A stretch of DNA of 64,000 nucleotides from Trichoplax sp. H2 (lineage: Eukaryota). Position numbers and translations under genes: made by a program. How positions within the stretch are numbered: the stretch's first letter is position 1; each line of letters begins with the position of its first letter. Positions 12,791 to 57,218 of this stretch are shown here, piece after piece. The notes under the pieces are model-generated. The model worked only from the letters and a program-made list of their open reading frames with translations, was not told where the DNA came from and did not search any database. The stretch covers positions 744,001-808,000 of the forward strand of contig NOWV01000012.1 of the NCBI GenBank assembly GCA_003344405.1, given 5' to 3'.

Positions 12791-15700
12791 ATTATCAACA
12801 ACAGAATGGATTCGTTCTGATTGACTTCCTGGGATAAGTGTTAAATTAGGCTTATTCGAACTACTAATTCCTGCTTGAACATAGATACCCGTTAGAACGC
12901 GAGCTATTAATAGTGTATTACCATAAGTGAGTGATGTTTTTGCACGGACAGCAAAATAAGTTCCTGTTCCAAGCATAGAACCTATAGAGCAAAGTAATGT
13001 AAAAAAAAAAGTCACCTACCGTTAGAATGACTTGAACTAACCTTGAATACAGATTGATAGCTATAGGCTAATGATAACAAAATAAGGGAGATTGTCACAC
13101 TATACTAACACTACCAATTCCATCTTGATCTAACAACGTTAAACGTCTTAATAACTAGCACATACACTTTTATTTAAAGCGCGGAATAATACATAGCATT
13201 AGTGTTATACTGCTTTATTTTCATTTCTAAAAATGCTCATTATTTCTACTACAAAACTGCATTAGAGTAATAGCTGCATATTTTCGATATAATAATCTCG
13301 AAATATGTTCGTTTAATTTCAACCTCTGTATACAATATCAACGATATTCAACGATCTCTAAACATGTTAATTCATTTCGATTACAATTTACGACCTTTAA
13401 CATCTTAATTTGCCGGTACTTTTATTATTTAAACGACAACATACTGTATTATGCATTACAATACAGCGACACTAAATTTATTAATAACTTCAATTTAACT
13501 GTAATATATGACATCAATAGAGGCAAACTACGATAATATCTCCTCAAACACGTTAATTTATTTAATTTGACTATCATTTAGACGTTAGTGGTATGTTGCG
13601 ATCACTAAAGACGTTAACTAGTTACTTTTATTTCACTGCCTTACAAAATTAACAAACTAGAGGAAATATTTTACTGTTGTACAGTACAGTGTTATAATTA
13701 TCATAATAGTGAATGATACTATCTCTAAACATGTTCGTTCAGCTTGACTAGAATTGGCTGCTTCAACTTTATGTAACATACCCGCAAAGCTCTTTATTGC
13801 ATTAATTGTAAGCGAGGTATATGATCTTAATGGTATATTGAGATACCATAATCACGAAACATATTATCCGCCTTAACCTAGCCGTAATACATGATAGGGT
13901 ATATTACGATGTTGCGATCTTTAACTACGGTAATTGCTTTAATTGAGCCCAAATAGATAACCTAAATTGTAGTACACACTACGACCTTCAAATATTTTAA
14001 TTACCTTAATTTATAATATAGGGTGATTAATGGCAGTAATGGTATCTGGATGTGTTGCAACATTGCGACCTTTAAACATCTTAACTACTTCAATTCGACT
14101 CTAATAAGATATTACCCGTTCTAGCTACTTCAGTGCAACTTATAATTACATTTATACATGTAAATAACATTAGTCCTAGATCAACAGGACTGTATCGAAA
14201 TATTGAGTCTCAACTAACCAAATGATTTTCCTGAGTAGTCCCTATCAAAGCCCCTCTTACATATACCATCGATATTCGATCCTGCTGTACCGTGAAACAA
14301 CAGCTTCTCAACTGGAGTGCCAGGTTTGTATTTCCGGATTGCATTTTCAACATCTTTTTTCATGATTTGATAGCGACGATACAAATTCCAGTTTTGAATA
14401 CGTGTTATATTGCGAACACGAAGCCCAGTGAATCCAAGAAGATTTGTAATTTGACTTATTTCGTGTTGATTAGTAACATCAACAGCGTGATAATAACCAT
14501 TAGTTATTTCACCCATTTCATCCCAATACGGAGGTACAGTGATCTCGTCATCTATTTACAATATTAGATTGATTCATGATCATTTAAAAGTTTTTAAACT
14601 TTTCAACCGTTTTAATGGACAAATTTATACTGGCAGATACCCCATTTATAGTACAGTATTTGCTAATACGTAGATGAGAAAGAGAGATTGATTTATCGAC
14701 ATATCGTCATCCCTGTCAAAAGTAGAGAATCAAATCTACTGTATCTTACTCACCGGTTGACATAAATCTTCCTATCGGATACTGTTTTCCAGAAACTGTC
14801 ATAATCATGTTTTCATAGTCAATCGATTTTATTCCTGAATCGACCAAAAAAATCTTATTGGTCTTATCTTGGAGATAGATTTCATAATTTTTAACGAGGT
14901 CATAATTCATCTTACTATCAAATTTAAATTTGGATTGACCAATAATGGCATACCAGGAAGTAGTTTTAGCTATCGCTACTTGTACTTCGTTAGCGGCTTT
15001 TTCTTTCAACCGTGAAGCAAATAACTTATGAATAGCTGATATCGCATTTAAGATATCGGGTTCAAATCCGTGAATTTTTATCATTTTATTTCGATGGTAA
15101 TAGACTAGGATTGTATTATATTTGCACCAAAATTGTAATGTTATATAATGCCAACGATTTAGGTCGATATCGACGAAGTAATCTTCGTCAGTAATTTGGT
15201 GGCACCTCCAAGTATCAGCACAATCATTCACAATTGATCGCATCCGGTCTATTTTATAGCGATTCTGAGATGCGTAGATAATTTTTAAACCAAATTGGGG
15301 GTTTGCCATACTAAAAGTTATTTCCCAAGGCAACTTTAGCTTCTTAATCTCTTGCCCTATCCATGTTGCAATCTCTTCCACTCGATCTCTTGAACTTAAG
15401 GCAAAATCAACACAATTCAATCTGGTCTTATCATCTTCGTGATTAAACAAGAATAATTCAATCTCAAAGAGTATCTGGTGGATATACTCCGCGTTTAATT
15501 CTATACTTATTAATGGGAATGAAACAGAACGATCACCACTTGCATTAATATAGCTTAATAACTGACCCACACCGGTTAAACAGCCATATGGACATATCTG
15601 ATATAAGTTACAATTGAGTTGAAAATTTGGCAAACACTGCAAAGTTTCCAATGTATGCTGAGAATTACAATTGTCCATAACACCATCCAATGTCTCTAAT

Positions 15701-18304
15701 TTGCGATGTTGATCACATAATACTGTTAAATCAATAATGGCATCGCTTGTAGCTGCAACAATATTTCCATGATAGAGATTAACATATAATGGTTTATCAT
15801 TAATATAACAGCAAGCGGTAAAGTACAGTACATAGCTACCGTTCGAGCTATTTGCAAGATTACTACTGCTACATTTTGTAACTAATTCAATCTCCTTGCG
15901 ATCTGGCATTAAAACAGGTTGCATAGCTATTGGTGGTGTAGCAGGTATACTGTTAAATGATAGGAGAGATGATGATGACGGTGATTGAGTGGTAGTGACT
16001 AATGGCACAGTCTGATTTGGTGCATTTAATCCAGTTGATCGTTCATGTAATAGTCTTATAAATAGTTGTTGATGATTAATTTGGTTATCTAGGATAACAA
16101 AATAAACCGTCTTTAAGCAAATTTCTTCCTTAAGCTGCCGACTGAAACTAGATACCACATCGATCATTCCTTTGATCACTTCATCAGCCTTCAACCGACT
16201 TCCACCAATTCCAATCATGGGTATAGCTATAGATTTCATCAATTCTATTTTGGCTTTTTCTAGGCAACGCGCTAACCCATCCTTTAGCCACTAGAATATA
16301 AAATTGATCATGAGAATACAATACTTTATTCATATCTCAATGGTTAATGAGCTTCGATATGAATTAGCTTAGCCTGTAGGAAGAATTATAATGATGAAAA
16401 ATTTTACAGACTTACTGTGATCGATTTACTGGAACTTAAAAATGGCAAGTGATATACTTTTTTACATCCAAAATAGCTCCCACCAGTACTACCAATATCC
16501 TTGATACCTAGAAATTGTAACTGAATTTCACATTCAAGTTGATAACCTAGACCACCAGCTTTATGTAATGCGGTAGCGATGGCGCCATCGTAATAGGATT
16601 TCAGCTTCATAGAATTGACGATAACATCAGCCTAAAGATGCAAGATAGCATAATATAAATGAACTTTATTTATGTGTATAGCTAATTTCGCAAAGTGTAA
16701 TTTGAATGAAGATATTTCAATATTTTTATAACAAAATTTTTAACATAATTATAACTTTACGCACTACTCGCCCTTCTTTCTCGATACTTCCTATTACCAA
16801 TTTAATAGCAACACGATCATTTATATTATCCGACGTGGCTTTCTTAGGCAAAGTTGACGTTAGGGGTAGTTTATTTATAGGAGTATTAGGGATGACTGTT
16901 TGCGCGGATAATTCATTATTATTAGCGAGAATTAATTTATTTGATACTTTATCCACATCAGATGTCGTCGTAGTTTGTAAATTACAACTTGCTCTACCAT
17001 TAGAATCTATAACTTTCTGAATCTTTACTTCATTCCTTTTAACCTGGTTCATACGCTTTGAGCCCTTCAAATTGGTTGATATACTACTATAAATTATTAA
17101 AATATAGAAATTATATATGTAAAAACAGCAAATTAAATTAGTGCTTGATATTAATAATTGAATAATATCTAGTCATGCTAACATATTACAGAGACAACTT
17201 TTAATTTCTAACACTGATTACAGATCAGTAGCTAGTAAAATTAAACTTGTAATAATTTACGTAAATGTACAGCGCTATTATTAGTACTACAGTATACCGT
17301 ACTCCAGTTAATTCATCATTTTCAGATGAGTGTGATGTACTCAAAAATATTGACGATGAATTATCAACTACTACCAAAGCTTAAAGAAAAGAAGTTACTA
17401 TGGGTAAAAAAGCAGCCGATGGAATTAAAATATGACTGCCAATATTCTCATAATACCTAATCAGACCACAATCGATTTCTGCTATCGAACACGAATTAAA
17501 TACAGTAACCGTTACAATCAATTAGTTCCTTAAAAATTCTGATGACGGATAACTCAGGTTTCAACAAGATTTAAAGAAATTGTGTGCAAGAATAGTCTTA
17601 GACTAAAACTTAACGTGAACTTGGTATTATAATTACCACTTCCATAACATCTAGTCAGATAACTTTCGATTGTAGATACTTATCGAATAACTGTTTACGA
17701 GAATAGGCTGTAATAGCATTAACATTTCAATGATGTATTAATTAATTTTTATTAATAATGCAATACGAGTATATGAAATATGAATCAGTAGTGAAAAGAT
17801 TTTTATTATTATCAACATTTTGCCCATTTAAGGAATATTTACTAGCCGAATCGTTTTCTTAAAATCTATATGAGTCATTTATAACATAGAATATAGGATA
17901 GCAGTCTAACATTGATTTAGCAATAAATACATCTAGTTACAGTTTGCTAACTGATACCTTTGATCTTTATCGTCTAGAATGATAATTATGCAGTCATTTT
18001 CATCTTGTAAAGATTTCAATCTCATCTGACGATGGCTTGATGTTAAAAATCTTCCCACCTTACAACCTGTACTAATAAACTGGTCCTCTTCAACAATAAC
18101 ATTATTTAACAGCTTATAAATCTCGTTCATAATAGATTCTCTATTTGATGGATTACATTGAACTTTAATTTGATGATGACAGATAGACGTATGCAGACAC
18201 TTTTTCTCGTCTGCTTTCTCAAATAGGATAACGCAATTATACTGATTTTCAAGTTGAAGGATTTCATGCATCAAATGTAATCGCAAGTATTCTATTTTCA
18301 AAGC
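12719..18304 (-). CDS. PARP14/15-like macrodomain PARP (macro, degenerate macro, WWE, PARP catalytic); predicted mono-ADP-ribosyltransferase; 5' end unresolved
   Basis: Macro 1 KLVIGSIEKE..ADVIVNS..GAIATALHKAGG..SIAIPMIGIGG; second macro-like VNLYHGNIVAATSDAII..SVSFPLIS; WWE-like TSWY..FDSKMNYDL..IDYENM; catalytic RIQNWNLYRRY..EKLLFHGT..GFDRDYSG..GTGTYFA..TIFVV..AYPEYIL. Exons ~16631-16416, 16290-14753, 14551-14219 and 12981-12719 splice in phase. Exons above 17.4 kb are less certain. Confidence 0.85.
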
Positions 18305-19053
18305 TGAAAAAAATATCCACCGCATAAAACATAGTGAATTACTTTTCGTTATAAATGCGAAATAGATGCAAGTATTTTTAATAGAACTCTTACATACCTT
18401 GTTCAAGAGTTTTTTCCTGAAATAGCGCAAAATGATCCTGGAAATAGTTGCTATCAAGCGATTTTGTTTCTTTTGTATTAGAACTTAAAGACGGAGATTT
18501 ACTAATATAACGTCAGTAAAAGACTATTAGTATCAACTGGTAAAAAATACCCGTTCATGTGAACGGAGGATGATTTTTGTTGGTTGGCATTCGCGGATAT
18601 TAGAATTTAGATTTCTATTACTACGTGGCATTATTCATTCATTATTTCCTCGATGTACAGTACAACTCAATTTGTATTCACTAATTTTGTGTTAGATTCC
18701 TATCTGTGTCTAGCGTTATCCTTTTCCCACGATGTGTGAATATACTGCCGTACAATAACCATCCTGCAATACCGTATGTTTAAACAATTATTATTATACA
18801 ATTTTAGCTTAATTAGGATTTTATCCACTTTTAACGCTTGTGTTTTTTCATTACGCTATCTATGCACTAATTCAATTTATGCCCATTCGATAGCGTGCAA
18901 CGGAAACTTCATATAGTTTACATTAACCTTTGTTATTACTATATATGTAAAAAGTAGGGTACATTTACCATTAGAACACCACTATGATGCCCGAATCAAT
19001 CATTACGTTGTATAATAATTAAAAAAACATGCGGCAGCAGTAGCTATAAATCG

Positions 19054-23172: not shown

Positions 23173-23677
23173 NNNNNNNNNNNNNNNNNNNNACAATAAT
23201 ATCTAAAATGAATCTCACACATGAGCAGTATTGACATTAGCCTACGTAATTATGGGCTCCGTATTGAAGTTGAGTGCCAATGTAGCACTTTAGAACGAGG
23301 ATAAATTTGATATCGTTGACTCTCTCACGTAGCAGCTATGGTGTGTAGTTCAAGGGTTTCAGATATTACTAGTGCAAACTCCCGTCGCTTTACTGACGGT
23401 TTACGATAATGTGCTCATTTAACAGAGGTTCAGTAACTTTATATCGTGTACTGTGTACAGTACTGTACTGTACTGTAATGTACTGTATGCTGTACAAATG
23501 CACGGTNNNNNNNNNNNNNNNNNNNNAATATAATGGAAGTTAACGCAATTATAGATCATGTTATTGCTCTTTGATTAGATATCAACAGATAAAGTCTTGC
23601 GCCTTCATCTTTAACGTAAGCTGAAAACTAATTAATCCTTTTCAACATTAGGAGTGTGTCGAAGCTTAACTCTTGCA
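23173..23677. other. Assembly gaps (23173-23192, 23507-23526) flanked by redundant copies of 22603-22778 and 23022-23172; probably an uncollapsed second haplotype
   Basis: 23193-23368 matches 22603-22778 with a few SNPs; 23527-23677 matches 23022-23172. Confidence 0.85.
23369..23506 (-). mobile_element. 3' end of a Helitron-like element, truncated by the gap
   Basis: The minus strand ends CCGTCA-GTAAAG-CGACGG-GAGTTTGCA-CTAG, a GC-rich hairpin 9 nt before a terminal CTAG. It sits at an A^T site relative to the empty copy at 22778/22779 and contains an (ACTGT)n tract. Confidence 0.75.
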
Positions 23678-24291: not shown

Positions 24292-27200
24292 TTACAATAT
24301 ATTACAACATTGGCTAACATGAGGATTAGACGTTGTCCTTGTACGTGGCAATGCAGAAAATAGCGCATCTTCAAAAATTGAAGATCCTATCGAAATATTG
24401 TCATATGGATGGAAACGAATATGATTTCCAGAATTACCACCATCATTAATATTGTGATGATTGGTATTATTATGATCAGTATTAGTGCTGGAATCATGAT
24501 TACTATTATTATTAGGATTAGGCGAAAGATTATTCGTGGAATCATTTTGATTATCTAGTGAATTGCCGGATGTTATTTGTTCATCGCTCAGTTTAACATA
24601 TTTATTGATTCGTTCAATAATCTCCGAAAATTTCTCGCGTGGCGATAGATTTCTACCTTTACCTCCATGACCACCACCTTGGCCGCTCATATCGATGTAA
24701 ATAAGTTGAGAAAAGCTAATAGCCATTGCACCTGGTGGTGGCCAATCGACCTTTTCCAACATGACAGGCACAATCGGCTTACCTAACATATCAGCTAAAA
24801 TAATCTCTTTACTACAACTACTGGAAGAGACATACTTGGAGGTTACACATGCAATTACTAATTGGGCCTCTTTGATACCGTCATAAATTTTTTGATATAG
24901 AATATCACCGCCACCCATTTGACCAATATCAATCCAACATTTATAGCCATACCTTCCTAATCGACTACATAAGGCTTTAGCTTCAGCTTGATGGTCCCAT
25001 TGATAGCTGATAAAAATTTCTGGTGAGGGTGTATCGGAGCGGACAATGTTGTTATTATTACTGTCTGAATTTTGAACGATACCTTATGATTGAAATTGAG
25101 CGTAAAAAATAATTGTAAGCTTATATAATGGTATTGATACACTCTTAATATTCCTTCCAAATCAGTTTCAATCATTTAGTTAACGATCACAATACAGCTA
25201 TCAAACAGAAGTCAATCTATACATTTATTTCGTGTTCGTTGTAATTGAAATAGAACATGAACTAAAATTCTAACATGACTGATTTCTTATTAGTATATAC
25301 TCTATTATAGCATACCTTTATTAATCTCAATTTCCTGCATTATGTGCATAACATCGTCGCGTTGTATTGACTGCAATATTTGATATAAATCATCGATGGT
25401 ATTACTTTTACTCCAATCATTCAATATTGCATGTGCAGGATCTGCTGTTAAACTCCAATTACATATATCGATCTCACTATAGCCCATTTTTCGAGCCAAT
25501 GTGCGCCAATTAGCTTTACCAGGTAAAGTTAATAAATCGGTAACTTCATGGGGCCATTCAAATTCTTGTTCATTCTATCAATTTATTAATACATATGTTA
25601 GCTACTAGTTCTAATATGGAAGTCTATGAATGATAGTTTAATTATTTTAGATTTTTTCCAACATATACGAACTACATCATTAATTGTATCTATATCAAGA
25701 CTTTAGTCACTATAAATAGGTATAAAATAAATACCTTGCTACTGGACTTAATTAAGGATCCTAAGCTTTTCTTGTCTAGATTAAACACGGTAATAAAAAA
25801 AGCAATAGAAATTTAGTTATTACAAAATAGTGCCGGTATATTAATGATTGTATATTGATTAGCACTTATGTACGTCGATATCTAAAGATTTTAACTCTCA
25901 GTGGTCAATATAGAACAACCTTTTTTAACTTCAGGACAAAACCACTTTTTATATGGTGCTGTACGAATTCTTCTATGATCACAGAGGACCAGCTAAAAAA
26001 ATGCAATTTTTATGACCGTTTGATGACATATGTATAAAGATCTCTTCAATATTATATAAAATTCTTATGAATATAATCAAAAAGATGACCGTAGGCACAG
26101 CGTATTGATTTATGGTTTAATTGATAATATTCCGAAGTAATAATCTCTTTTAAAGTGCAAAATAAAAATTTGTCATTAGTACTAAGCTAACCTTTGCAGA
26201 CTTGCAGAGTTCTAATTCATGAAAATGCAAACACTCTTCTCTTTGACAACCATTAATGTTATGTTTTTCACATAACTTGTTGCATGTACAGGCTACAACA
26301 ATTTGATAATTAAGGTGACGGATCCAGGCTTTACGCAAGTTAGCCAATGTCGCTTTAACAAACTGCAAAACCTGTAAATAAAGTATTTAAATAAGAACTG
26401 TATATATTTCGGTGTTAATACTATTTACAGAGACTAATATATTTGCCAATCTTTTAATGAAATCATACCTTTGTACATGCTTGTCTATTTACTTCAATAA
26501 CAACTCCTTCTTCCTCATCATCGAAGTTTGCTCGTTGGACAACAACCTATTAGTAAGGGTGTCATACAGGGTATCATTTATAGGTTAGGATTTACTTCTT
26601 ATTTATAGTGAGCCAGACTGTAACAACAAAAGCATCTATTGTAGCCATTAACTGGTACATTACAACACTATTAACCTTTATTCGTGCAAATCGCATAGGT
26701 GCTCGATGTAGTATAAAATCATGATCTTCATCTAAATAAAATCGAGCACAGTTATTATATAAATAAGGCTCTCGACCACCACATTCTTGTGTCCATCTAA
26801 CGACATGCATTAATAAGCGATTATAAAATCCATCTGGCAGAAATCCGTCAAAGTCAACATAGAACGATATATCCCAGTTATTATGAATGTAGATATCTTC
26901 AATCCTCTTGGGATTTTGCAACCGTGATGGTAAATAATACGTATTTCCACATTCCGCATAATCAGTACAATCAGATGATCCCTATAAAATAAGAATAAAT
27001 TTAAAAATAAGATAGTAAATAAAAGATGACTGACATCTAGGTAGAAATTGATAAAACAGCTAAAGAAAGATAGTTATTTATTTTCTTAGGTGCTATAGTG
27101 AATTTGTTGGACCTTTCGGGGAATTAATCGACGACATAGCAGATCAAACGATTCCATTAAATTTAGTAACATTGATTTATGATCGATGATATCACCCCAC

Positions 27201-30200
27201 ATATAATTGATTAAATCGTCAGTCAATATTCCTCGTTTATTAAGTAATTCTAATGTATTCGATTTCATGGAAAACTGAAATAAGATAAGAACAAATTTCA
27301 AAATAGATATTTATAAGCTTTAAAGTTTCATCATTACTAAACAATTGAATTTATGTTCGTTAACTAATAGTCAAAAATATGATTACATTTTATCCGTAAT
27401 TATACCAATCATGTACTAACGTTATTGCCTATGTTTTTCAAAGTTAAAATTTTAACAAAAGAATCAGCCAACCATAACGGATCAAGAATAACAGTAATAT
27501 TGTTGGATGTATTCCCAACTGAATCTTGATAGTGTACAATATTGCCAAGATCGTGATAGTATTGTAACATGACTTTAATAGCAGATCGATCGATAATATG
27601 CGATTCCGATGCAATTAACTGATAAACCTAATAATACATAATAATTTTTAGTATGAAAAAGATTAGTGCGCAAAGATAATATCATCCGTATCACAAAATG
27701 AATAATGTTATTGTAGTAATGAAAATATGATATAGATATGGTACAGTATTTGTCAATGCAAGAGTAAAAAAATGTGACAGCACTGGTAAATCGGGTTACA
27801 GTACAATATTATTTATGTATCTATTGAATTTAAAAACTATTCAAATGGCTATTTATATAACCTTAAAATAATTATTATCAATCGATAATTATTGTTTGAT
27901 TGTTATATTTCTTTTACGCAATTAAAACTATGTTCAGTCTAGTCTTATTAGTTAATCAATACTAAATTTAATTATACTTATTAAACGCTCACTGAACTGA
28001 CATAAATATTCTTATTCCAAGAAATACTACCTTATCGTCTAGACAATAAACCTATTTACTTATTTATTTATTAATTTGTCCGCAGAAACGGTGTCAATAA
28101 CCATACACAATTCAGCTATAAGTCGATTTTAATCATGAGCTTAATTGCTTTAGCACTGACCTCATCGGATGATATTAAATGCTTTCCTTCTTTCGTCATT
28201 TGTCGAGATAGGCATTCAAATTTTAGCCACTGGATCGGTATCTTTTCACTGATAAAAGGTTGTGATTCTACAGCATTGTCGATGCTTTGAATAAGTTTGG
28301 CCAACTACATAATATCATAAAAAAGAAATCTTATTTAAATTCTTTCCATGACATTAAATCCACTGTTCTCATCAAAAAATAAAATAAATCTATTAAATTG
28401 CGAACATTTTTTTACTTACCTCCTCGTCTTGATCATCATCTAATTGATCATCAATTGCAAAAAATATTGGGGCCATATGCCTAGCGTAAGGTTTACCCCG
28501 TAGGTTTTCCTGTATCCTATCAAATCTATAGTTTATTAATTTGTTACGTTCCTAATAGGAAACAAAGAATTGTCGTTAGAAAGAGCTTATATTCTATCAT
28601 ATCTCAATGGCCTTTACATTAATAATAATACAATCAAAAGTTTTAAATATGCTCTTAATTTTTATTGTTGGAGGTTAGCTATTATTTACCCGAATATAAA
28701 CAAAATAATATTACATACATTTTTCGACTTACTGTGATATTACTACCAAGTTTATTCTTATTAATGCCAATGATAAATACGGTAGGTGTTAGAAGAGTAG
28801 CTTTACGACTGGGGTTTTGACCAACAGCGCAAGAGTAAATGGAGCTCATCCAGTATAAAATAAAATCCAGTACACATAATTCATTTCCCTCCTATCAAAA
28901 AATTTATAATTTGAGTTAAACTTCATATGCATTCACTTAAAGTTTTTTGTGTCAGGGACTACTTCTTTTAGTAGTCCCTGTTAGTATGGATATATAATTA
29001 AATAAAAAATAAATTAAAAGTAAATTGTTCACTACGAATGTCGATTCTAATTAGTACAATTGTAAAACGACTAAAGTTTAATTTTAGACACTATACCGAT
29101 TCTTCAATATCTTCGGTTAAATCGAAAGCGATGATATAGATTGATTTATTGTTGCAAAACATCTACATTATCCAGATAATAATAAAATGGAAATTAATAG
29201 CTAATAAGGGGAAATTTCTGATTTAGAGTGAACGATTAAATATAGGAAGTGCAACGATGGTTTCAAAAGTTTGGCGATCGCAATTAACTTACACGATAAG
29301 ATAAATTGTGTATAGGTTGTCCACTTAAATCCCAGACATCATGAGTTTTTAAGACCTCCTCATTGGGCTTAACTTCGATATTATTTTTTTCATGATTATC
29401 AATATCACAATTTTCAATCATTTTGCATACAATTTGTTTCATTGTAGGGGCTAAGCTATTTAATATTGCTTCATGCTGTTGACTAGCTTGCAGGGTCGAA
29501 TCGGAAGTTTGTAATTCCTTCGACAAATGCCAGCTAGGAGAATAACTTGGTTCATCTTCAATATCACAAATATCATGATCGTCAATATAACGATCTTCGT
29601 CATTGACATTCATATTAGATTCATCAATATCTTGATTATCGATTATACTTTCTAATTTGGTAACAATGCTTTTAGCTAATGCTTGATCTAGTTGTTCTTG
29701 AATTTTTTCCATTTCATCTATTTTAATTGACAATAAAATCATAATTGAGAATGTACTATAGATGAATTTCGCTATACCGCATATTTAAACAACGAAAGGG
29801 GCAAGACTTCTGAGTGTCAATACTGCATCATCATTTTAGGTATTGATTATAGCTATTTTACATCTTTATTTATAACAGCATGATAGGTTACCTTCTATGG
29901 TGGAAAACGAATATTTCTTATCCAAAGCATCTTTTCCGCCTTCTTCTACTAAAGGACTTAAATTACCTTGACCTAAAGTATCAAAATTGTTCATTGCGAA
30001 AATTTTAAAAACAAACGAATTAATTACAATAAATATTTAGTAGATTTAACAGTTCCATGTACTTTATAACTTTTAAGCTACTTGTACAGAGAAATAACGT
30101 AGTTATAAATATGATGTAGATATGTATTACCTTTCAGGATTTTACTAATTGTTTGTCGGGGAAGCTGATCTTTACTTAAGATTACAAAGCGAATTCGACG

Positions 30201-33200
30201 AACATTTCGACAATCAAACTGTGAAGCTTTATTATATGCTGCAATAGCATCTTCACCATGTGCTAAAATTTCCGGTGGAACTTATGGTTTGACAGAAGAG
30301 CGAGAATGATATAAATCAGAAAATTGGATAATATAGATTTTGATCAATGTCTATGTAGCTCTATAGCAGGGAATATTTCAAGAAAAAGCTTGCATTTCTT
30401 GAGTAGTCCCTGTTTAAAGTACTGTCAAGCAAATAAAACTTTAGTCTATTCGAACAGTACCAAATACGATATTAAAGAAAGTAATGAACATTTATGGTAA
30501 ATTTCTATCCGTGCACGTTTGATAGGGAATAAAAGATCTTTAAATAATAACGCAGATGTTTATTGTAATAAAAAAGATACTACCGGTAATTGTTGCAAAG
30601 ACATCATTCGCTAGGCGTTTCTTTATTTCATTTACATTTAATCTAATAATTTACATTATAGTTTCAACCTATATCTAAGGAAAACCTCTATTACGATCGT
30701 TAACCATATCTCTGGTTTGGATTAACTTACTATTTTCATTCCCTTCCGGCACGATGGTAGCACAATCACAGTTACCATACAAATTAATAATGCCGTAGAC
30801 GTTATTAGTAACATCCGTAGCTATCGCACCTAGAAAGACAAAATAAGCAGTATCGTTGGAAAATGCATTAAAAGTGTAAAGTAGTTCATAGTTATATTTA
30901 ATTAATTTGTCAACTCGGATTTTTCAGCGGCACCATAGTTAATCAAGTACATAAATTATTTCTCTGTCCTAACTGTTACTCTAATTAATAATTATCAATC
31001 GGTATTTTGCTTTAGATAGATACAATCTCCAGTATAAGTACGCCATATTTAATTTGAGTTATACCTATACTATAACAAATTAGTAAGGTATGATGTTTCA
31101 TAGCAACAGCTACTTAACTCATCAATCAATATTTACTTCCGATAAGCAATATTATTAGGTCAAGTTAATAAGCTTCGCGTGAATATTATCATGTGCAACT
31201 ACTACATATTGAATTGTAATAATTGCCAAATGTTGTACGAGAATTTTCGATTTGATTTAGTAATAGAGTGTTAACGTGTTTACTATTCGCTTTGTAAATT
31301 ATACTTTTATAACGATTCCTCATTAAAAATTTCTAATTTACAAAAACTTTATGATAAATGTAATCATAAAGTTACGTTCTGAAATATATCTCAAATGCCA
31401 CATGAGCGTAAAATAATTTATGCCATCTCAGTCCCCACTACCGTAAGTTATGCTTTAACGTACGATAAATATAGATTATTTCATAAATGTGAGAAATTAA
31501 CCTAAGTCATTGCCATTAATGTACGCATGAACATGACCATTTGTCTTTCGACTAATACCAAAATAATCGCCCATCTTCAAAGAATGCAATCCTTGATGAT
31601 GGCAGTAATTTTGACATTGACCATGGACATAAAGATTTTTATCGCTGAGAATCCAATTTGGAGATTGTTGTATTCCTACTAAAGAGCGGGGGAATTGTAA
31701 ACTGGTTGGTGATGCAGTTGTTAAACCAATTTGTAAGTTCCCATTCCACCTTGTCATAACATTGTCAATTCTTAACTGAAATAACTCATTATCTTGTAAA
31801 GGACGATTTGTCATAAAAGTAGCAGCATCGAATTGACTGACTGGATTTTTACGGCTAGCAATCGTAAAATCGGACGATAACATGCCATTTAATCCATGTC
31901 TAGAGTAAAAAAGTAAAGGAGTTCGGGGATTCGAAGCTGAAAGTAAAAATAAAGGCACATAGATATTAAGAGAAAGGCGATAATCAGTCAATATTAATCT
32001 CTTTTTTAGCTTCATTGATATTTACCATTTCACAATATTGCTATTACTATAGATTCCTTTTACATTTAAAGTTTACGGAGAAGTTGTAGCAATCAAGTAT
32101 TAGAATATTCTAACGTATAAAATTTATTAGAAGAAAGATTTACCTGCAGGCTGTTCTCCAAGATAGTCTATCCTTACTTTACAATCGCCAATAATTGTTG
32201 ATATCATAGGATAAAGAATTTTTCCTTGTAGTCCGTGAAAGGCAATCCCTAGGTTAACACCATTAACTTCGTAAGATAAAGTTCCTCTATCCATATCTAA
32301 GATAACGCAAAATTTCTTAAATCTAGATAATTCTTGATTTAATATGTTACTGCCATCTTCGCCATCTTGATTCTGGTTATGCAAATGATTAAGCATCGGG
32401 TAATGGCCTTGTTCAATATTTGCATGTATTAATACTCTTTTGCTGATATTCCATCCCCAACTATTAGTACTACAACCAACTAGGCTGGTATAGCCTGTAC
32501 AATGCAGACACTCTTTCTTGTTACCAACACCGGCAACGGAATGAGATCCTAAAAATATAGGTATAAAATCATACATAGGATCAATTAAAAAATCATCCCA
32601 ATAATTAAGTGCAATTTCTGTTTGAAACTGAATTACTTGATTAGTTAATAAATTAAAACTTTAACTATATTACTTTAGCATTTCCTTAAGCAATATTAAT
32701 CATGATCAATCTATGGTCGTTATATCAAAATGATTCAATATATCTTAGAACTACTCTATACCAGAGCCGATAGTAAATAGGCCACTCTTGATTCAAAATT
32801 GATCAACAAAATAGATTCACAGTAACATGAACTAGCTACATTATTGAAAGACAAGGACTGAAGTAAAAATTTATATGTATGGTATGTTTTATAAAGAGAA
32901 AAGATTACATGATAAATAGTGATACTATGTTTATTTGATATCATCAAATAGAGATTTGCGACCATTTCTCAAGAATAATTCATCAATTCCACTATGTTCA
33001 TTACATGTTTAATATATGGTATTAAAATGACTAGACTTTAGAAGACTCGGTTTACGTATGTGCATGCTGATCATTGATTAATAAATGACTGAAACAGATT
33101 TGAAAATCGAAGCCTTAAATTACAGCAATCATAAAATGTAATTTATCATCGCCATTAGCAGAAAGAAACGAAGTACAAAATGACAGTAGTGTTAACATAA

Positions 33201-34592
33201 CAAATGGATTTACCATAGCAAAATACACATTACTCGTATAATGATGCATGCAATGGTTAATAATTTACGAAAGATAACGTATGTAAATTAACGTTTTCGT
33301 ATATGGAGTATGACTGATTCATAATTATTATCACAACAGACTTAATCTATTGATTGTGATATCGGGTATGCTATATGTATTGCCTAGAAAGATTGAAACT
33401 AACTACTATGATTCGTTAATTCAAATTAGTAGCAGTAATTTACAGTGATACTATCACTCCAACACGTTTTCGGGATAGGGATAATTACGTTCAAAACTGA
33501 ACTTGATAATAAAGCTATTCAGGATCAAATAGAGGACGCAGATGACATAAAATCTATTTTTAAGATAGAACTCAGCAAGAAATTAACGGAAAAGATACTA
33601 ACCTAAATCTCCTTGCCATGTTAATTGCCAAACATGTCTACCATTCTCTATGCTTCGATTACATCGAATAGCATCAGTTGATTGGACTGCTTTCTGCCTC
33701 TGACAAGCATGAAGATCATCGTCCAGAACATGAATATTAACTGAACAATCATCTGGATTCCATGTATATAGATTGGCCATTTCTTGACCTGGCCGACGGT
33801 TGCCTGATGATCAATAAATAGAGTAAATTATGAGGATAGAATATCTTCATGAATTAATGTCCTTACTAAACGACATACTATATGAATTACTATTAGCTTA
33901 ATCAAAGCTATCCTGAAATAACAGGATAGTTCATAATGCTTTAGGATTACTTTGTTAAATACTTATTTAAGGTTACCAAGAATGACAGTAAACTTACCAA
34001 GATAAATGATTGAAACTTCTGCATTGCCATAGACTTCGCTAACCATTGGATAAAGAGATTTTCCAACTAGCCCAGTACAACAGATACCAAGATATTTACC
34101 CTCAGCTTCAAATGCTAATGTTCCATTTTCCATATCCAGATAGACTATAACTTCACTCGGTGCTTGGTAATCAAGAGCCATAGACGGATAGCAAGTTAAT
34201 GATTTCTTTCCTGCACTATAGCTAATCTTGTTAGTAATATCCCAGCCCCAAGCGTTAGGGTCTTGCTCAATTAATGTTGTGTAACCTTTACAATGTAGTA
34301 TGGCTTCTTTTGAGCCAACACCTGCTACTGCATGGCTACCTCGTGGAGTTAACCATTTTAATTTCCAAGCATGATGGCCATGAGTATAGCCATATCTACC
34401 TCTAATAGCATCGGTTGATCGACGAGCTGGCCTTCGATAAAAGGTTAATGGGTCATCGTCTTTAATGTAAATATTTTTGGAATGATCTGCGGGATGCCAA
34501 GAATGAATAATTTCCTGATTGAGTTCATTTTTACAAATCGAGTCGTGTTTATCACCATGGCGGACGACATGATCACGACTAGTTGTTACCAT
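24292..34592 (-). CDS. Multidomain Roco-like protein: SPRY-SPRY-NHR(Neuralized)-degenerate Roc-COR-Death-TIR, Asn-rich tail, CaaX; over 20 exons, roughly 1700 aa by rough exon sum
   Basis: SPSB-type SPRY x2 (HSWHPADHSKNIYIKDDDPLTFYRRP..STDAIRG; TWNPDDCSVNI..STDAIRC); NHR (FMTNRPLQDNELFQLRID..WNGNLQIGLT..VYGIINLYGNC); Roc lead-in VPPEILAHGEDAIAAY, WDLSGQ, SIYIIAFDL, LDFILYWMSSI; COR (IPIQWLKFE, MLQYYHDLG, VILDPLWL, YYLPSRL, FDGFLPDGFYNRLL); Death (NWRTLARKMG..AILNDW..LQSIQRDDV); TIR (IFISYQWD..CWIDIGQMGGGD..CSKEI). Splice phases were checked by eye from SPRY into early COR and for Death-TIR. Confidence 0.85.
28953..28980. repeat. Intronic 28-bp foldback CAGGGACTACT-N6-AGTAGTCCCTG
   Basis: Perfect 11-bp inverted arms; shares its termini with 30367-30412. 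Confidence 0.7.
30367..30412. repeat. Intronic 46-bp foldback CAGGGAATATTTCAAGAAA...TTTCTTGAGTAGTCCCTG
   Basis: Imperfect ~18-bp inverted arms; the right end AGTAGTCCCTG is identical to that of 28953-28980. Confidence 0.65.
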
Positions 34593-37500
34593 CTTTCTTT
34601 TTTCTCCTTGGAATAATATAAAAGTAATCTTTACTTTAAGTTGGCTTAATAACAGTTGGGTAGCTAGAGCTAAATTTTAATGAAGGAAAAAGTAACGAAT
34701 AAATTTATAGCTATAATATATGCCAACATTACGGGAAGAAAAGTTATAACTTCGATAATGACACATATAGGTGTACAGCAGTAGTCCGGAGTCATAAAAT
34801 TAAAGAAAATTTGCTAAAGAAAGGGTGAGGTAATAACTGCCATTTTCACCTTCCTTTTAGTAAATCATTATCTTATAAATGCCCAATTTTCGGCTACTGT
34901 ACGTTAAATGTCACTTTAATAGACTTTAATAAAAATGAAGGATAAACTCATTAAGTGATCTAATAAATATTATTAAAATAAACCAATTATAGAAATGAAA
35001 GAAAAGCTTCTAAACAGTCTTATGAAAACAATTTTATAAGGAGAATTTTAATAAATAATTAAAAATGGAAAATAAGACCTGAAATTAATTTAAATTTTTC
35101 CTGCTTATTGGATTATAAACATGGTTGAATAATATTCCCGTACTACTTATTTTTCAATATGCATATTAAAATTCATATTAACAAACGATAACAAAACTTA
35201 TCGATCATGAATATAAAGTACGTATATAAATCTTGGGATATTTTCGAAGGATATTAGGGAGAATTTAAAGAGGGATCAATAACGAGATTTTTCTCACATA
35301 CGTATAGTATAGTGCACGGTACAATTGTCTATTGTATCTCTATCCATAAAAATGTCAACTATATTATTGTATATGGTCTTTAGATTCTTTACTGAAGTTA
35401 AATTCAATGATTCATAGCACAGGATTTAACTATGTTAAGGCAAATGAAAGATTCTTCGGTATAAAATAAAAATGTTCAATTCTCGAGTACCGGTAGCTTA
35501 AATCTTCAATCGGTTTTATGCCTCTATTATTAGAGTCATAATTTCTTTAGATTATTCTTACTGTGAGTATAGGAAATTACTTAAATTAATTGAATAATTT
35601 CAACTAGAAAAAGCTTTTCTTTTTTTTCTCGATCTAAACTTTAGATAGATCTATGCAAAAATTTCTACTGCGTTGCTACTAACTGCTACGGGATAAGCTT
35701 TATATGATCTTTAATAGAATTTCATCGCTTCCTTAAAAGATGCCTATTTCGTTTATCTTCAATACATATTTGCTTCATACCACCTTCATATATAGAATAC
35801 TTTTGATTATAAATAAATGATTAGTAATTTTACCGTCAATTCTCGACAAACTTTACGGGTAATTTATCAAAGATTTACTGCAGGACAGTCTTTAGTGTTG
35901 TGGGGGTACCTCGTATTACACCCGTAGTATAGTAATAGTGTTGTAGTTTAGATTAATGAATCGCCAATGGGGTAAATTAGTAGTAGTATTATTTATGTGT
36001 TGGCAGTACAAAATTTTTAGTACAACGATACAAAGGTACTTTATCATGGCATGAAGATTTAGGTTAATAATTATTCACAGAGGCATTCAGATTTAATGCT
36101 ATTAAACTGTTATCTTCAATTTATAGCATAAGAATTTTAAGGAAGAATAGACATAACGCAATCGATGTAACTCATACATCAAAATTGCAAATAAACCTAG
36201 AATCTGATGTGTGTCTGAACTTAATCACTATCCTTAAGTAAATCACTTAGCGACGTTCATATCCAGTGTAACTTTAAGACAGAAATTGACATTAAAACTA
36301 AAGGGCTATATTCAAATTCATAGTATGGTAAAATGTCAATCAAAGAAGTCAAATTTTTCGTTAAAATAGATAACTTGTTTAGAAAGAAAAGGCTACATAC
36401 GTTACGCGATCAACTTAACAGCAAATTTAAAGAAATAATTATTACACGTAGCATTACCGGGTTAGTAGTTTTGCATGTTGAAAAGTCAAATTATCAAGGA
36501 AGAAATTGAAAACACATTTGATACTTATGGCATCAAATATTGCCTAATACTGTAGCTTAATCATTGATATCGCCTACGTATAGAAGAAAATTGAGATCCA
36601 GAGTTTAGAAAAATTAAGCAGGTACTTCTAATTTTAATATTATGAAGTATATCACGTATATTAGAACATTATATTCAGGAGTAGGAGAGGATTATGACTT
36701 TTCTAGATGAAGACTGATCCATCGCTACTTTTACGGCAATCATTTAAAAAAGGCTGTTACAATCTATATTTACTATATAGCACTAAATATATGACCGGTA
36801 CCTTAACATAAAATTCATAAGATAAGCTAGACAATCATATAAGAATGAAATAGATTCATTATCTTTTTTACCCCTAGAATAACTTCTGAAATAGATACTA
36901 TGTCATAATTTTATTGCTCCACGTACATCTAAGGCTAATAACTTGCCCTAAAATTATAGGTAATAAAGGCAAGCTGTGACTTCCCCAATGGAATGATGTG
37001 CTGCTACATACTTATGACTACGCTCATGTGCTATGATATTTTTATTTGGCTGTCTCTGTATTAGATATTCTTCAATTTAACTTGTGAAGAGTTACTTGAA
37101 TTATAATGATGCTACAAATATTATTGGAGTCTACGTACAAAGTTAGAAATGGAGAGTGTTATGAAAATAAATTTTATGACCTTTCAGCAATTTCAGTATA
37201 AATAGAACTAGAAAAGGAGTTATTATAAATACCCTTTAAAATAGTGTGATAAGCTGCTTAAATTTATCGACAAATAAACCTAAAGTCAGATTTTTATTAA
37301 TAATGTTAATAAAAAAAATTTTACAAACGATATAACAACCAAAACTTTTGCAGTTAGTGTTATAATTTCGACAAAACCTTTATGACTCTAGTAAGAGAAG
37401 TAGTAGTATTTAATTAATAGAAGCTCCGCTGTACAGTATATTTCACGTCCTACACATATACGTGTATCATACTTATTATGGATAACTTTTGCAAGTATGT

Positions 37501-43262: not shown

Positions 43263-43542
43263 ACTATAACTTACAATATGTGTATTGTCTTAGGTGGAGA
43301 ATAGAATGATTGCATCCGATAATTAAATATGGCTTACGAGTATACTGTGTTAAAAAATACCGACTACTCCGCCCTAATAAGAATAAAAATGATGAAGCTA
43401 AATTGTTCCATTACACCTCTANNNNNNNNNNNNNNNNNNNNCGTAATTTAGATATTTCTAGGACAGTCTTTTGTGCTATCACCAACATTTTAACGTTGTT
43501 CCAGTCTCACACTATTTTCCAATATTACTAAGTAAAGCGATT

Positions 43543-43898: not shown

Positions 43899-46632
43899 AC
43901 TATAACTTACAATATGTGTATTGTCTTAGGTGGAGAATAGAATGATTGCATCCGATAATTAAATATGGCTTACGAGTATACTGTGTTAAAAAATACCGAC
44001 TACTCCGCCCTAATAAGAATAAAAATGATGAAGCTAAATTGTTCCATTACACCTCTAAAATTCTTCGTATCATACCCTGGTAGCAATAAACATGATTCAC
44101 TTTGCCTTACGTGAAATGTTACTATATTTTCCTATAGTCAAGAATAATCTGTATTGTTAATCGGGCCACCCGAATAATCCAAATTTGAAAATCGATTTTA
44201 TAGCTATCGATTAAGTTACCTGGTAACGATTCCAATCAGAGAAATCATACAGCGATACATGCGTAAATATTTTCAGGCAGCATACGTATAGAAATTGATA
44301 ATATTGGGGTTGTTACAATTGCTAGATTATAATGCTCCTGATGACGTTTACAGAAGATTTTTTTAGAACTAATTAAGTAATAGATATTTTATTAATAGCT
44401 ACAACACAAGAAATAAATTCTTCTCTTAATTACATTGTTTAATTAGTTTTAGTAATGCTTTTGTTTTAGCATTAACGTTAGTAACAAACATCCTCAATTT
44501 TTAAAATGATATACACGTACAGTACTTAGTTTGCATTGAATTCGTAGCCAACAAAATAAATCTTGCCGACGCGGTATCGTCTGTGTTATTAGACATAAGA
44601 TAATAGAGATAATCCAAAAGTTAGTTTCATTGATCAATTTGTTTATCGGTTTAGACTACAACAACAACGAGCTTCTTTAGTTTTCAAAAGATTTATTTAG
44701 TACATAATTAGTTCGTTGCTAGTGCAGTATATTTTATTGATATTGCCTAGGTTATCTGATATACTAAAATAAAAAGTAATTCGCTCTTTAAGGCATCAAT
44801 ATGTGGTTCATAGGTTAGTATTAACATTTGGAATAAGAAATAAATACTGTGATTAGATCAGATATTTGATTAATTCATGTGAACGAAATAAAGCATAAAT
44901 TCGATGTAATCTTTATGTAATAGCAATCATGATGAATAGTTTATAATTTAAGTCAGCTCGTTTCCCGTCTAATTTAGCAAAGTAATATCAGTAACAGCTA
45001 GACATACTGCCCATCGCGTACAGGCAATGTTGTTATTATTATAGCAACACTAAATCCTCTTCTACGAACGAGTATAGTGACTGCATACCATCGTAAAGTG
45101 ATTATATCATTAAGATATCGAGCAAAAATGCACCGAATGATGCTGTTACAAATCAAAAGGCTGTATGTAGATCATGGAACTAATTTTAGCCTTACTTATA
45201 TCGGAAATGATTTGTAAATGTCAAATTGTGAGAAATTTTCATTCTCAGTATTATTCAGGCTAACTAGAGGCAATTCCATGAACGATACTGCAATATAGCA
45301 AGCAGCACATTGTCACTGCAGGATAGATAAATGTTTCGTACCGATAACTTTAAACTTTTTTCTCCTTAATAATACGGGATAATACGAAATTTAAGTTTCT
45401 AGTCATTTAAATAATCTACTCAGATAAAATTTTCTGCAGAGCTTTTTGGAAAAATCAATTTATCTATGAAAAATATATAACGAAGATAATCAGTACGAAC
45501 TTTATTTATGTGGGTGTGCATTATAATAAGTTTGTATCAATAATAAAATGCAATTTTTAATTATTCTCTTATCCAATGATACTACTTCAATTACATATTT
45601 GTTACAGTTAACGAATCCTTATTAATAATTTTATTACGTAATACATGAATTAAAATATTTTTGATTTGTGTAGCAACTTCAATTAAATTTCGGAAGTGAT
45701 GATTATAATAATTTGTAGTCATTGCAAAATTTTAGTTACGCTTAGGTAGCTATACCAAATACACAATTCAAATATCAAACATGATTAAGCTAAACAACAA
45801 AAAGGGTGGTGATCAATTCCTTAGGACAATACTTACAAAAATATTGGTCCTAATTCTTATTAAAATGTAAAAATTTCAGGTTATTATTACTATTCAAATT
45901 TTAATTGTTTCAATATAGAAACTATTGATAATTATATAATGACCCGCAGTGATTTACGTGAAGTAGGTTGAATGAGAAGGCCATCTACTATAACGGTTGA
46001 CAGATGTAATGATTACTTTATTAAATTCATACTTATCATCAGCTAATTTAAGGCAAAATATGTCATAGAAATATCGTTCTATTGGTCTGATGGGTATTAA
46101 AACCCTCAGGTTGAATTTTGGTATAAGTAATGGTAAGATATTTGAATCGATGACAGCTGATCATGATCATTGTTTAGAGCAGTTTTGGATTGATCTTCAA
46201 GTCGAGAATTATTATAAGGACAAGTATTATTGTAAGAGAAATATAAAATGAAAAAGATAACTTAACTCAATTTTATTTACTGTTAATAGCTATTCAATTT
46301 TTTGTTAAATAATGATACGAAGAATCTTAGTATTTTAATTGTAACATCTGATTGTAAAAACAAAGAAATACATAGAAATATAAAAGTAATCAGTTTAAAG
46401 ATTGATTAGGATTTTATGGTACGATTGATAGTTTATTAACGGTGTCACCCTAACTCTGTCGGAAAAAATCTCTGAATGTTACCTAATGATGACTCTGAAA
46501 TAAATTTAATTTTATTACTGTAAAACTTTCTCTCAGTTTACTGGCAGTAATTACTCTGTAATAGTAAGTCAAAAGGGACGTGTTCAATGTCAGCTTTAAA
46601 TGCTTGCCGTTAGATAGCTGTAAATCTTAATC

Positions 46633-47889
46633 ATGAATGATTCTATAATTAATAAAACTTTCGATCTTGGTATCGCCCTTTACTATTACACCAGTCTGGC
46701 ATTAATTCCGGTATTTGCCTTCGCATTTATAATTAACATCTTCTTACTTTACGTTTTATTACAAGGTAGCGCTTTTCAATGTATTCCCTATAAGTTAATC
46801 CGTATTTCAGTTATATCTGATGCTTTATCTAGTTTAACTGCTGCTATTGGTTATTCTCTTATTACACAAAATTTTTCCTATCAATCGGGTAAATTACTCT
46901 GCCAATTCATCATGTATTTGGTCTTTACATTTAATGGTATCTCCATGAATAATTTATTTTTAATCGCTATTGATCGCTACTACGCCATTGTCAAGCCATT
47001 CTCGGGATATCATCAACGCCATCGTCGGCGAGCATTTTTTATTGGACAAATTATATCATGGAGTTTATCCATTGCCTTTAATATTATCCTTGCTCCTTAT
47101 ATTGGGGGAACTCACGCTGATACGACTCTTTGCGATATACCTGATATTGAAGATCATCTATTTATTCCCATAACTCTTATCTTATTCTGCATCCTGCAAT
47201 ATATTATACCGTGCACAACTATAACAGTTATTTATTGGCGAATTGTCCACCATCAGAAGCATTACGTTAGACCTGGTGAAAATTCATTATCACAGCGAGA
47301 TCATGAAGCTAAAAAGAAAAAATTTAATAAGATACTTATGACCATTACATTATGTTATATTTTAACGACTTGGCCTTATTATGCTGGTGTCTTTGGAATG
47401 GCAATAACTCGTCAATCGGTTATCACAATTCGTAACAAGGATCCAATAATATTTATCTTCTTATTTTGTTCGCTTGGAACCAGCATTTGTATTACAGTAA
47501 TTAATCCGTTTATTTACCTTCAATTCGATGCCAATATAAGAGCTAAATTCGTAGAAATTTTACTCAGAAGAAAGAAGGAGAGAAAAGCATTATCAGTATC
47601 GAGCAAGACAAAACCAATAGAGTTATCACAAGCTACACGGAAAAAACATAAAATTGCACTTACTAAGCAGCGTGAAATTAAATTACCGCGTAGAAAAGTA
47701 ACAATAGCTAAACTAGATCGCAATAAACTAATGGTACCACCTAGGTCATCTCATATTGGCCGGTCTCTAGAACCAAATAATTTCAAATTGATTCCTCATT
47801 CATCGACAATAAAACAGGCTGCTATCCAAAAGCCTAATGAAGTGCTGGCAATACCCGGATTGATACCCGATGTTGAAATAATATACTAA
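46633..47889 (+). CDS. Intronless rhodopsin-class (class A) GPCR, 418 aa, with a long basic C-tail
   Basis: Seven hydrophobic segments, TM3 Cys (LLCQF), IAIDRYYAIVKP, ECL2 Cys, YIIP..YWRI, TTWPY, NPFIY. Confidence 0.95.
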   Translation: MNDSIINKTFDLGIALYYYTSLALIPVFAFAFIINIFLLYVLLQGSAFQCIPYKLIRISVISDALSSLTAAIGYSLITQNFSYQSGKLLCQFIMYLVFTFNGISMNNLFLIAIDRYYAIVKPFSGYHQRHRRRAFFIGQIISWSLSIAFNIILAPYIGGTHADTTLCDIPDIEDHLFIPITLILFCILQYIIPCTTITVIYWRIVHHQKHYVRPGENSLSQRDHEAKKKKFNKILMTITLCYILTTWPYYAGVFGMAITRQSVITIRNKDPIIFIFLFCSLGTSICITVINPFIYLQFDANIRAKFVEILLRRKKERKALSVSSKTKPIELSQATRKKHKIALTKQREIKLPRRKVTIAKLDRNKLMVPPRSSHIGRSLEPNNFKLIPHSSTIKQAAIQKPNEVLAIPGLIPDVEIIY

Positions 47890-56255: not shown

Positions 56256-57218
56256 TTAATTGCCTTGTTTATTCTTTCTTAGTAATACATCGAAAAACTT
56301 AGTTCTTATATTTGAGTCGAATTTAAGATATATGAATGGATTAATAAGAGTAATACCAATACTCGTCCCTAATGAGTAAAATAGGAATAGAAATTCAGCC
56401 AGATTTCTTTTACGTATAGCGAGAACTGATTGACGAGTTACTGCCATACCAGTAATACCAGCGAAAAATGGCCAAGTTGTTAAAACATACCAAAGTGTAA
56501 TAGTAATTAGTATTTTAATAAATTTTTTTTTCTTCAATTCTTGCTCTTGCGGTTGTCTTGAATTTTGTCCTGGTCGTACATAATGCTTTTGATGATAGAT
56601 TATTCGCCAATAAATATTAGCTATCAATGAGCATGGTAGAATATATTGCATAATGCAAAACATGATAATAATGATAGGAATTGCAATGTAACGATCGATT
56701 TCAGGTACATCACAAAGTGTTGGATCTTCTGGGGTTCCGCCAATATAAGGTACAAGAAATAAATTGTAGAATATAGATAATAACCATGATGCGATTTGTT
56801 CGATAAAGAAAATTCGACGACGGTATCGTCGATGGAAACGAGATAGCGGTTTAACAATTGCAAAATAACGATCCATAGCGATTAAACATAAATTATTCAT
56901 GGAGATTCCATTAAAAGTAAATGCGAGATTAAAAATGATTTGGCATAATAATTTACCTGATTGATAAGAGAAATCTTGCGCTACAAGAGAATAACCAATA
57001 ACAGCTGTTAGACTGGACATCGTATCCGATATAACTGAAATGCGAATTAATTTATAGGTGATACTTTGAAAGACCTTTTCTTGAAGTAGAACATAGAGTA
57101 AGAAGACATTTAATATAAATGCGAAAGCAAAAAGAGGAACAAGAGCTATACTTGTATAATAGTATATGACTGAGCCCATATCGATGGTACGATTATTCTC
57201 ATAAGTAGAATTATTCAT
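56256..57218 (-). CDS. Intronless rhodopsin-class GPCR, 320 aa, close paralogue of 46633-47889
   Basis: IAMDRYFAIVKP, TTWPF, NPFIY; collinear with the + strand paralogue (YKLIRISVISD, FSYQSGKLLCQ, HQKHYVRPG). Confidence 0.95.
   Translation of the reverse strand: MNNSTYENNRTIDMGSVIYYYTSIALVPLFAFAFILNVFLLYVLLQEKVFQSITYKLIRISVISDTMSSLTAVIGYSLVAQDFSYQSGKLLCQIIFNLAFTFNGISMNNLCLIAMDRYFAIVKPLSRFHRRYRRRIFFIEQIASWLLSIFYNLFLVPYIGGTPEDPTLCDVPEIDRYIAIPIIIIMFCIMQYILPCSLIANIYWRIIYHQKHYVRPGQNSRQPQEQELKKKKFIKILITITLWYVLTTWPFFAGITGMAVTRQSVLAIRKRNLAEFLFLFYSLGTSIGITLINPFIYLKFDSNIRTKFFDVLLRKNKQGN

Follow-up and report, generated by a model that had tools for sequence, protein, structure and literature searches.

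Roco proteins combine a Roc domain with the consecutive COR-A and COR-B domains, an arrangement present in LRRK2, in the Roco protein of Chlorobium tepidum and in Roco2 of Methanosarcina barkeri. According to passages of PMC6337361, the bacterial C. tepidum protein (CtRoco) is dimeric in the nucleotide-free state and monomeric with guanosine triphosphate (GTP), COR-B forms the dimer interface of the solved Roco proteins, and the G4 and G5 motifs vary among Roco proteins. The effect of GTP binding on Roc-COR dimerisation and output is debated in the field, including for LRRK2. Here, we describe an immune-type gene of Trichoplax sp. H2 with the same succession of Roc, COR-A and COR-B, in which the P-loop (the G1 motif) of the Roc domain has been lost. 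It lies on the minus strand of a 64,000-nucleotide stretch of DNA (GenBank assembly GCA_003344405.1, contig NOWV01000012.1, positions 744,001 to 808,000 of the forward strand), which was analysed as a whole and is called the window below; positions are counted from its first letter. Unlike the solved Roco GTPases, the gene product contains neither a kinase domain nor leucine-rich repeats, has Death and TIR domains as its effectors and is missing the G1 motif.

PseudoGTPases are already known as a class, and the case described here is a Roco member without a P-loop. In PMC5593906, the pG1 and pG2 domains of p190RhoGAP are described as pseudoGTPase domains. Like these, the Trichoplax gene retains a module derived from a G domain within a larger protein, after its nucleotide-binding motifs were lost. 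Unlike these, it belongs to another G-domain family and is known from sequence alone, and its loss occurred recently enough for P-loop-intact comparators of orthologue grade to be available. The same architecture from the NHR domain onward has been noticed before: part of PMC9334734 depicts an Aplysia protein with the order NHR-Roc-COR-Death-TIR as a ROCO-containing MyD88-like protein. In the open-access papers searched, none was found that joins the terms pseudoGTPase and Roco, although other wordings may exist and supplements fall outside this search. The pairing of pseudoGTPase with LRRK2 occurs there in one irrelevant paper only, and no paper combining ecTIR-DC, ROC and death was found.

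The G motifs of the Roc domain

The Roc domain is encoded by six exons (A to F), which contain the following features.

30280-30131, minus strand: exon A, with the linker before Roc, beta-1, the degenerate G1 and alpha-1 (acceptor AG at 30282-30281, donor GT at 30130-30129)
30176-30150, minus strand: the P-loop position, reading SKDQLPRQT where the family has GxxxxGKT(S)
29892..29972, minus strand: predicted exon B, the switch I/G2 region, placed by its splice sites and by alignment to the GQ...STDGID segment of the relatives
29293..29717, minus strand: exon C, a helical/acidic insert followed by beta-3 and G3, matched by the close relatives P0091 and P0092
29334-29317, minus strand: G3, reading WDLSGQ, with DxxGQ intact, within a run of 18/18 invariant columns of three sequences
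29097..29162, minus strand: exon D, the end of switch II/alpha-2 and beta-4 (profile of the relatives, E = 0.0033; splice sites)
28733..28891, minus strand: exon E, alpha-3 and beta-5 (profile of the relatives, E = 5.5e-10)
28768-28751, minus strand: the G4 position, reading GINKNK in place of the GTH[RK]x of the family
28420..28551, minus strand: exon F, alpha-4, beta-6 and the G5 region (profile of the relatives, E = 5.9e-8)

To collect relatives, 1.84 billion representative sequences were scanned in full with HMMER, the COR-B exon serving as the query, and 81 matches were obtained. The 35 relatives of at least 550 amino acids were used for the alignment of the G motifs. Over G1, 19 of the 35 align, while the other 16 do not have the region, are truncated or are unaligned there. 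Profiles of the relatives recover exons A, D, E and F, and the spliced model is matched with E = 1.2e-31, which identifies the domain as Roc. Searched one by one against Pfam, the Roc exons give no Roc match; they are short, and the domain is interrupted by the insert. The Roc halves of the relatives can in turn be matched to the solved Roco chains (4wnr, E = 3.9e-14; 3dpu, 9.1e-9; LRRK2, around 3e-8).

In P-loop nucleoside triphosphatases, a lysine holds the beta- and gamma-phosphates and a serine or threonine holds Mg2+. G1 has the form GxxxxGKT in 18 of the 19 alignable relatives, the exception being P0007 of a freshwater mussel, with a glutamate at the second glycine. In the Trichoplax gene, the Gly, Gly, Lys and Thr positions are occupied by Ser, Pro, Arg and Gln, respectively, and none of the four key residues is kept. 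With the lysine and the Ser/Thr missing and both glycines gone, one of them replaced by proline, canonical GTP binding would therefore not be expected; the sequence gives good support for its loss from a gene that is still living. No gap interrupts the alignment of exon A to the relatives, which extends from the linker across alpha-1 and includes the GQ that opens exon B. Exon A matches residues 183-236 of the relative P0002 with E = 6e-6 (tblastn), and its open reading frame matches the G1-G2 profile of the relatives with E = 2.6e-8.

The switch-I threonine of G2, present in most relatives, is missing from the gene too. G3 retains DxxGQ, and according to the alignment the hydrophobic core strands of Roc are also retained. 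An earlier note, made from the letters of the window, had called the domain a probable pseudo-GTPase with a lost P-loop and a surviving G3. Its coordinates for exon A, SKDQLPRQT and WDLSGQ are all exact, both of these claims hold, and the alignment that it proposed as a check shows that most relatives have G1 and the switch-I threonine and that the gene has neither.

Two further features that the note had listed have to be divided between the gene and the family. The G4 motif is altered as claimed in that its threonine has become isoleucine and its histidine asparagine, changes specific to the gene. The missing aspartate, however, is common to the family, in which G4 is GTH[RK] with N, D, E, Q or K as the next residue and the aspartate is not fixed. 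The long acidic insert is indeed present, located between G2 and G3, but it is not a sign of decay: it is shared by all of the full-length relatives compared (11/11), whose P-loops are intact or, in P0007, near-intact. The nucleotide chemistry of this family may be unusual in general. Partial erosion is seen in two mollusc members, namely P0007, with the substitution in the P-loop given above, and P0005, with DFAAK at G3.

The window was also searched for a replacement. In a six-frame scan of the whole 64 kb, [GA]xxxxGK[ST] occurs once, at 32136-32159 on the minus strand. This string was rejected as a P-loop: the last SPRY exon ends at a GT donor within it, which leaves its last three residues outside the exon, and it is thus not coding as such. 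When the G1-G2 profile of the relatives was compared with all stop-to-stop open reading frames of at least 12 amino acids in the window, only that of exon A was found, the next best having E = 8.8. Neither the motif scan nor the profile search thus reveals an alternative G1 exon in the window, which is among the findings that the earlier note had named as overturning its proposal. These scans would miss a motif split by an intron; exon A, however, aligns gap-free, and there is no room for one. A shifted P-loop in exon B was considered and rejected: its G-G-K aligns with switch I of the relatives (STDGID) and no beta-strand precedes it.

Distribution of the divergence over the protein

The gene model was compared domain by domain with the 11 full-length relatives. 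The identity ratio is the model-to-relative identity divided by the relative-to-relative identity, and conserved columns are those identical in at least 10 of the 11 relatives. Maximum-likelihood distance ratios were derived from FastTree with LG+gamma; the value for Roc joins both Roc parts and excludes the insert.

NHR: identity ratio 0.63; conserved columns kept 4/4; maximum-likelihood distance ratio 1.14
Roc, G1-G2 part: identity ratio 0.60; conserved columns kept 11/25
Roc, G3-G5 part: identity ratio 0.67; conserved columns kept 12/30
Roc, both parts: maximum-likelihood distance ratio 1.70
COR-A: identity ratio 0.85; conserved columns kept 23/29
COR-B: identity ratio 0.98; conserved columns kept 24/29
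COR-A and COR-B together: maximum-likelihood distance ratio 1.12
Death: identity ratio 0.78; conserved columns kept 5/5
TIR: identity ratio 1.00; conserved columns kept 1/1
Death and TIR together: maximum-likelihood distance ratio 0.85

The acceleration is centred on Roc; in COR-B and TIR, conservation is equal to that of any other member of the family. Roc keeps 23 of its 55 conserved columns, against 47 of 58 for COR (Fisher p = 1.9e-5), and the columns lost include the entire P-loop, the YYTTHQV segment of switch II/alpha-2 and the T-H of G4. The terminal branch of the gene in the Roc tree has a length of 1.68, about three times the median of the relatives (0.51).

Reading frame and constraint on the derived Roc domain

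In the gene model, all 20 introns are of the GT..AG type and the 21 exons contain no in-frame stops, frameshifts or broken splice sites, which agrees with the open frame and intact splice sites that the earlier note had claimed. The six Roc exons amount to 337 codons, all of them open. At the stop rate of the introns of the gene (0.090 per codon), the chance of this is 1.8e-14. The GC content of the Roc exons is 0.34, compared with 0.37 for the other exons and 0.27 for the introns. In three sequencing runs recorded as RNA, a share of 0.29-0.34 of the words sampled from 25000-34900 is present, in a stretch with an exonic fraction of 0.43; these shares are given no weight here.

A word-index search with exon C led to two close relatives, P0091 (74% identical) and P0092 (71% identical). 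Both run on through the same donor as exon C and are, because of this read-through, taken to be genomic open reading frames. When exon C of the gene is aligned with these two, 95 of the 140 columns do not vary. All 18 columns of the G3/switch-II run are invariant, with the derived, non-consensus residues included, while 45 of the 83 mid-insert columns are invariant in the same three sequences. When the invariant columns were shuffled, a longest run of 18 was reached in 475 of 20000 trials. The G3/switch-II segment of exon C thus speaks, modestly but directly, for maintenance of the remodelled Roc and against drift. Word-index protein searches with the COR-B exon and with exon A gave no matches, and a scan of JGI metagenomes with the exon C alignment gave 590 pattern matches, none of which was confirmed.

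Gene structure and domain organisation

The gene model was assembled by hand from translations in three frames and from the colinearity that tblastn shows with two relatives. It contains 21 exons and 1662 codons plus the stop codon, running from 34592 to 24292 on the minus strand. The domain order is SPRY-SPRY-NHR-Roc-COR-Death-TIR, with the derived Roc described above, and the protein terminates in a CaaX-like end. Outside Roc, the gene is made up as follows.

24292..34592, minus strand: the whole gene, in tblastn colinear with P0002 and P0004
34592-34590, minus strand: the start ATG, in the first SPRY exon
34592-33998, 33803-33603 and 32548-32144, minus strand: three 5' exons with two SPRY domains (Pfam SPRY, E = 2.9e-10 for the first and 1.5e-6 for the second; the splice phases fit)
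31936-31502 and 30829-30731, minus strand: the NHR domain, two exons (Pfam Neuralized, E = 1.4e-23; junction phases checked)
26192..28304, minus strand: exons G to K, COR-A and COR-B (Pfam COR-A, E = 3.9e-10 for exon H and 0.016 for exon I)
25316..25574, minus strand: the Death domain exon (Pfam Death, E = 2.7e-13)
24292..25082, minus strand: the last exon, with TIR, a low-complexity tail and the C-terminal Cys-x-x-Leu (Pfam TIR_2, E = 1.2e-23)

The acceptor of the NHR exon is in phase 1 and joins the SPRY exon, by which the two SPRY domains are fused ahead of NHR. Upstream of the start ATG, no open reading frame of at least 45 amino acids showing coding character was found. Exon B measures 81 nucleotides and is in phase with exons A and C; skipping it would preserve the frame.

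From NHR onward, the gene is colinear with a bilaterian family, as seen with tblastn (P0002 and P0004) and with Pfam. The three long relatives tested all contain Pfam Neuralized, Roc, COR-A, Death and TIR_2, and Pfam Roc is found in relatives with E-values between 1e-11 and 3e-14. The order from NHR to the C-terminal Cys-x-x-Leu is the same as in the gene, and so is the insert between G2 and G3. COR-B is 38-52% identical to that of the family (52% between the COR-B exon and the amphioxus protein), and TIR is up to 58% identical. A C-x-I-L or C-x-V-L end is present in 7 of the 8 relatives displayed, P0010, a truncated isoform, being the exception. Unlike the bilaterian proteins, which begin at NHR, the gene has the two SPRY domains in front, is without the P-loop and the switch-I threonine, and is altered in switch II and G4. 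Its most fitting place is within the NHR-Roc-COR-Death-TIR family, as a member without a P-loop and with a SPRY extension.

The named members are from amphioxus, octopus, sea stars, crinoids, a brittle star, a sea urchin, bivalves, a gastropod, a nemertean, a centipede and a bdelloid rotifer, and every one of them is annotated "uncharacterized". Echinoderm genomes contain several family paralogues, and the bdelloid rotifer member (P0019) carries an intact P-loop. Several members have been named automatically "non-specific serine/threonine protein kinase" in one database, while Pfam detects no kinase domain in the three proteins tested; the name was probably assigned wrongly by a rule triggered by Roc-COR.

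Proposed function and alternative explanations

Our main reading, with a probability of about 70%, takes the gene for a lineage-specific, living member of the bilaterian NHR-Roc-COR-Death-TIR family, which has gained two SPRY domains and in which Roc is a pseudo-GTPase that would, by analogy, form part of a nucleotide-free-like, COR-B-based dimer or scaffold. The GTPase module, to judge from its motifs, probably works without GTP. By analogy with CtRoco, Roc-COR would be permanently in a nucleotide-free-like dimer mediated by COR-B, and the GTP-independent scaffold role suggested in the earlier note is what we infer from this analogy. Such a constitutive dimer would be a fixed scaffold, joining the ligand-binding SPRY and NHR heads to the Death and SARM1-like TIR effectors. 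A C-terminal motif of the prenylation type could determine a membrane location, and control would have moved from the GTP cycle to ligand binding or to partner proteins. More tentatively, and with rather less confidence than in the reading as a whole, one may picture a Roc-COR naturally locked in the nucleotide-free state, with the GTP switch discarded, with switch II, COR-B and the SARM1-like TIR under constraint and with the new SPRY pair in control.

The nearest solved structure to the TIR exon is the TIR domain of SARM1 (E = 1.1e-4, around 24 bits), with a glutamate aligned in the K-E-I segment, which we take to be the catalytic residue of the SARM1 NADase. The resemblance to SARM1 is confined to TIR, the rest of the protein being unrelated. 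The C-terminal Cys-x-x-Leu presumably directs prenyl anchoring, following the CaaX rule. Together, the likeness to SARM1 and the C-terminal motif suggest a TIR domain of the NADase type on a prenyl anchor.

Three observations weigh against the main reading. The test on the invariant run of exon C is only modestly significant (around 0.024). The G4 of the family is itself without a fixed aspartate, so its nucleotide chemistry may already have been atypical. Finally, NHR is also more diverged by raw identity (0.63), and on that measure the acceleration is not wholly confined to Roc.

The alternative that survives best keeps the gene alive but gives it a different task. It could be a regulatory or decoy paralogue, which pairs through COR-B with a P-loop-intact copy or competes for the partners of Death and TIR, and would act as an inhibitor or adaptor. 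COR-B is indeed at the full level of the family, both in identity ratio and in conserved columns, and the paralogues of the echinoderms show that multi-copy families occur, with P0019 as an example of a P-loop-intact member. Against this, no paralogue is present within the 64-kb window, and the extra SPRY pair suggests that the protein has an input function of its own. We consider this explanation unlikely.

Less probable again is an atypical GTPase, in which Roc would still have a non-canonical mode of binding for a nucleotide or for some other phosphate ligand. The conservation of DxxGQ, which is strict in the close relatives, would fit this, as would the arginine at the position of the P-loop lysine and the already unusual G4 of the family. 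However, the four key residues of G1 and the switch-I threonine have all been replaced, with a proline at the second glycine, and the canonical loop in 18 of the 19 relatives that can be aligned over G1 shows that the family depends on it, which makes retained binding improbable.

A young pseudogene, or a Roc part drifting neutrally towards loss, would explain the long terminal branch of Roc and the 23 of 55 conserved columns kept. It is at odds with the 1662 open codons and 20 intact introns, with COR-B and TIR conserved to the level of the family, with the exon-like composition of the Roc exons and with a switch II that is identical in three relatives differing at 26-29% of the exon C positions; we regard it as very improbable. 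The weakest explanation is an artefact of the gene model, in which another exon supplies GxxxxGK[ST] or the P-loop spans a splice junction: exon B, as an in-phase cassette, could be skipped, but the alignment of exon A, uninterrupted by gaps between the linker and the GQ of exon B with alpha-1 included, the position of the sole Walker-A-like string of the 64 kb across a SPRY exon donor and the absence of a second open reading frame fitting the G1-G2 profile make it the least credible of all.

If Roc-COR is indeed locked in the nucleotide-free state, the gene and its P-loop-intact relatives would form a natural pair for probing the part played by the GTP cycle in dimerisation and effector activation. 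The gene would be a natural loss-of-binding variant in which COR, Death and TIR are fully conserved, and P-loop-intact counterparts in other animals would be available for comparison. Few pseudoGTPases are known, and the gene is a further case; it also draws attention to the uncharacterised NHR-Roc-COR-Death-TIR family, which is widespread in bilaterians. The gain is modest, as large families often include pseudoenzymes and the case is one made from sequence only.

Other features of the window

The window is AT-rich eukaryotic DNA, with a GC content of 0.316. It contains three assembly gaps of 20 N each (23173-23192, 23507-23526 and 43422-43441), the first two of which are located about 0.8-1.1 kb downstream of the stop codon of the gene. 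Large open reading frames on the minus strand are present further downstream of the gene, at 14217-14555, 14749-16290 and 17936-18484; the first resembles a PARP catalytic segment by eye. Two long, intron-free open reading frames, at 46624-47886 on the plus strand and 56259-57245 on the minus strand, have very similar N-terminal halves. Judged from the list of open reading frames, they resemble seven-transmembrane receptors and appear to be a divergent pair of paralogues.

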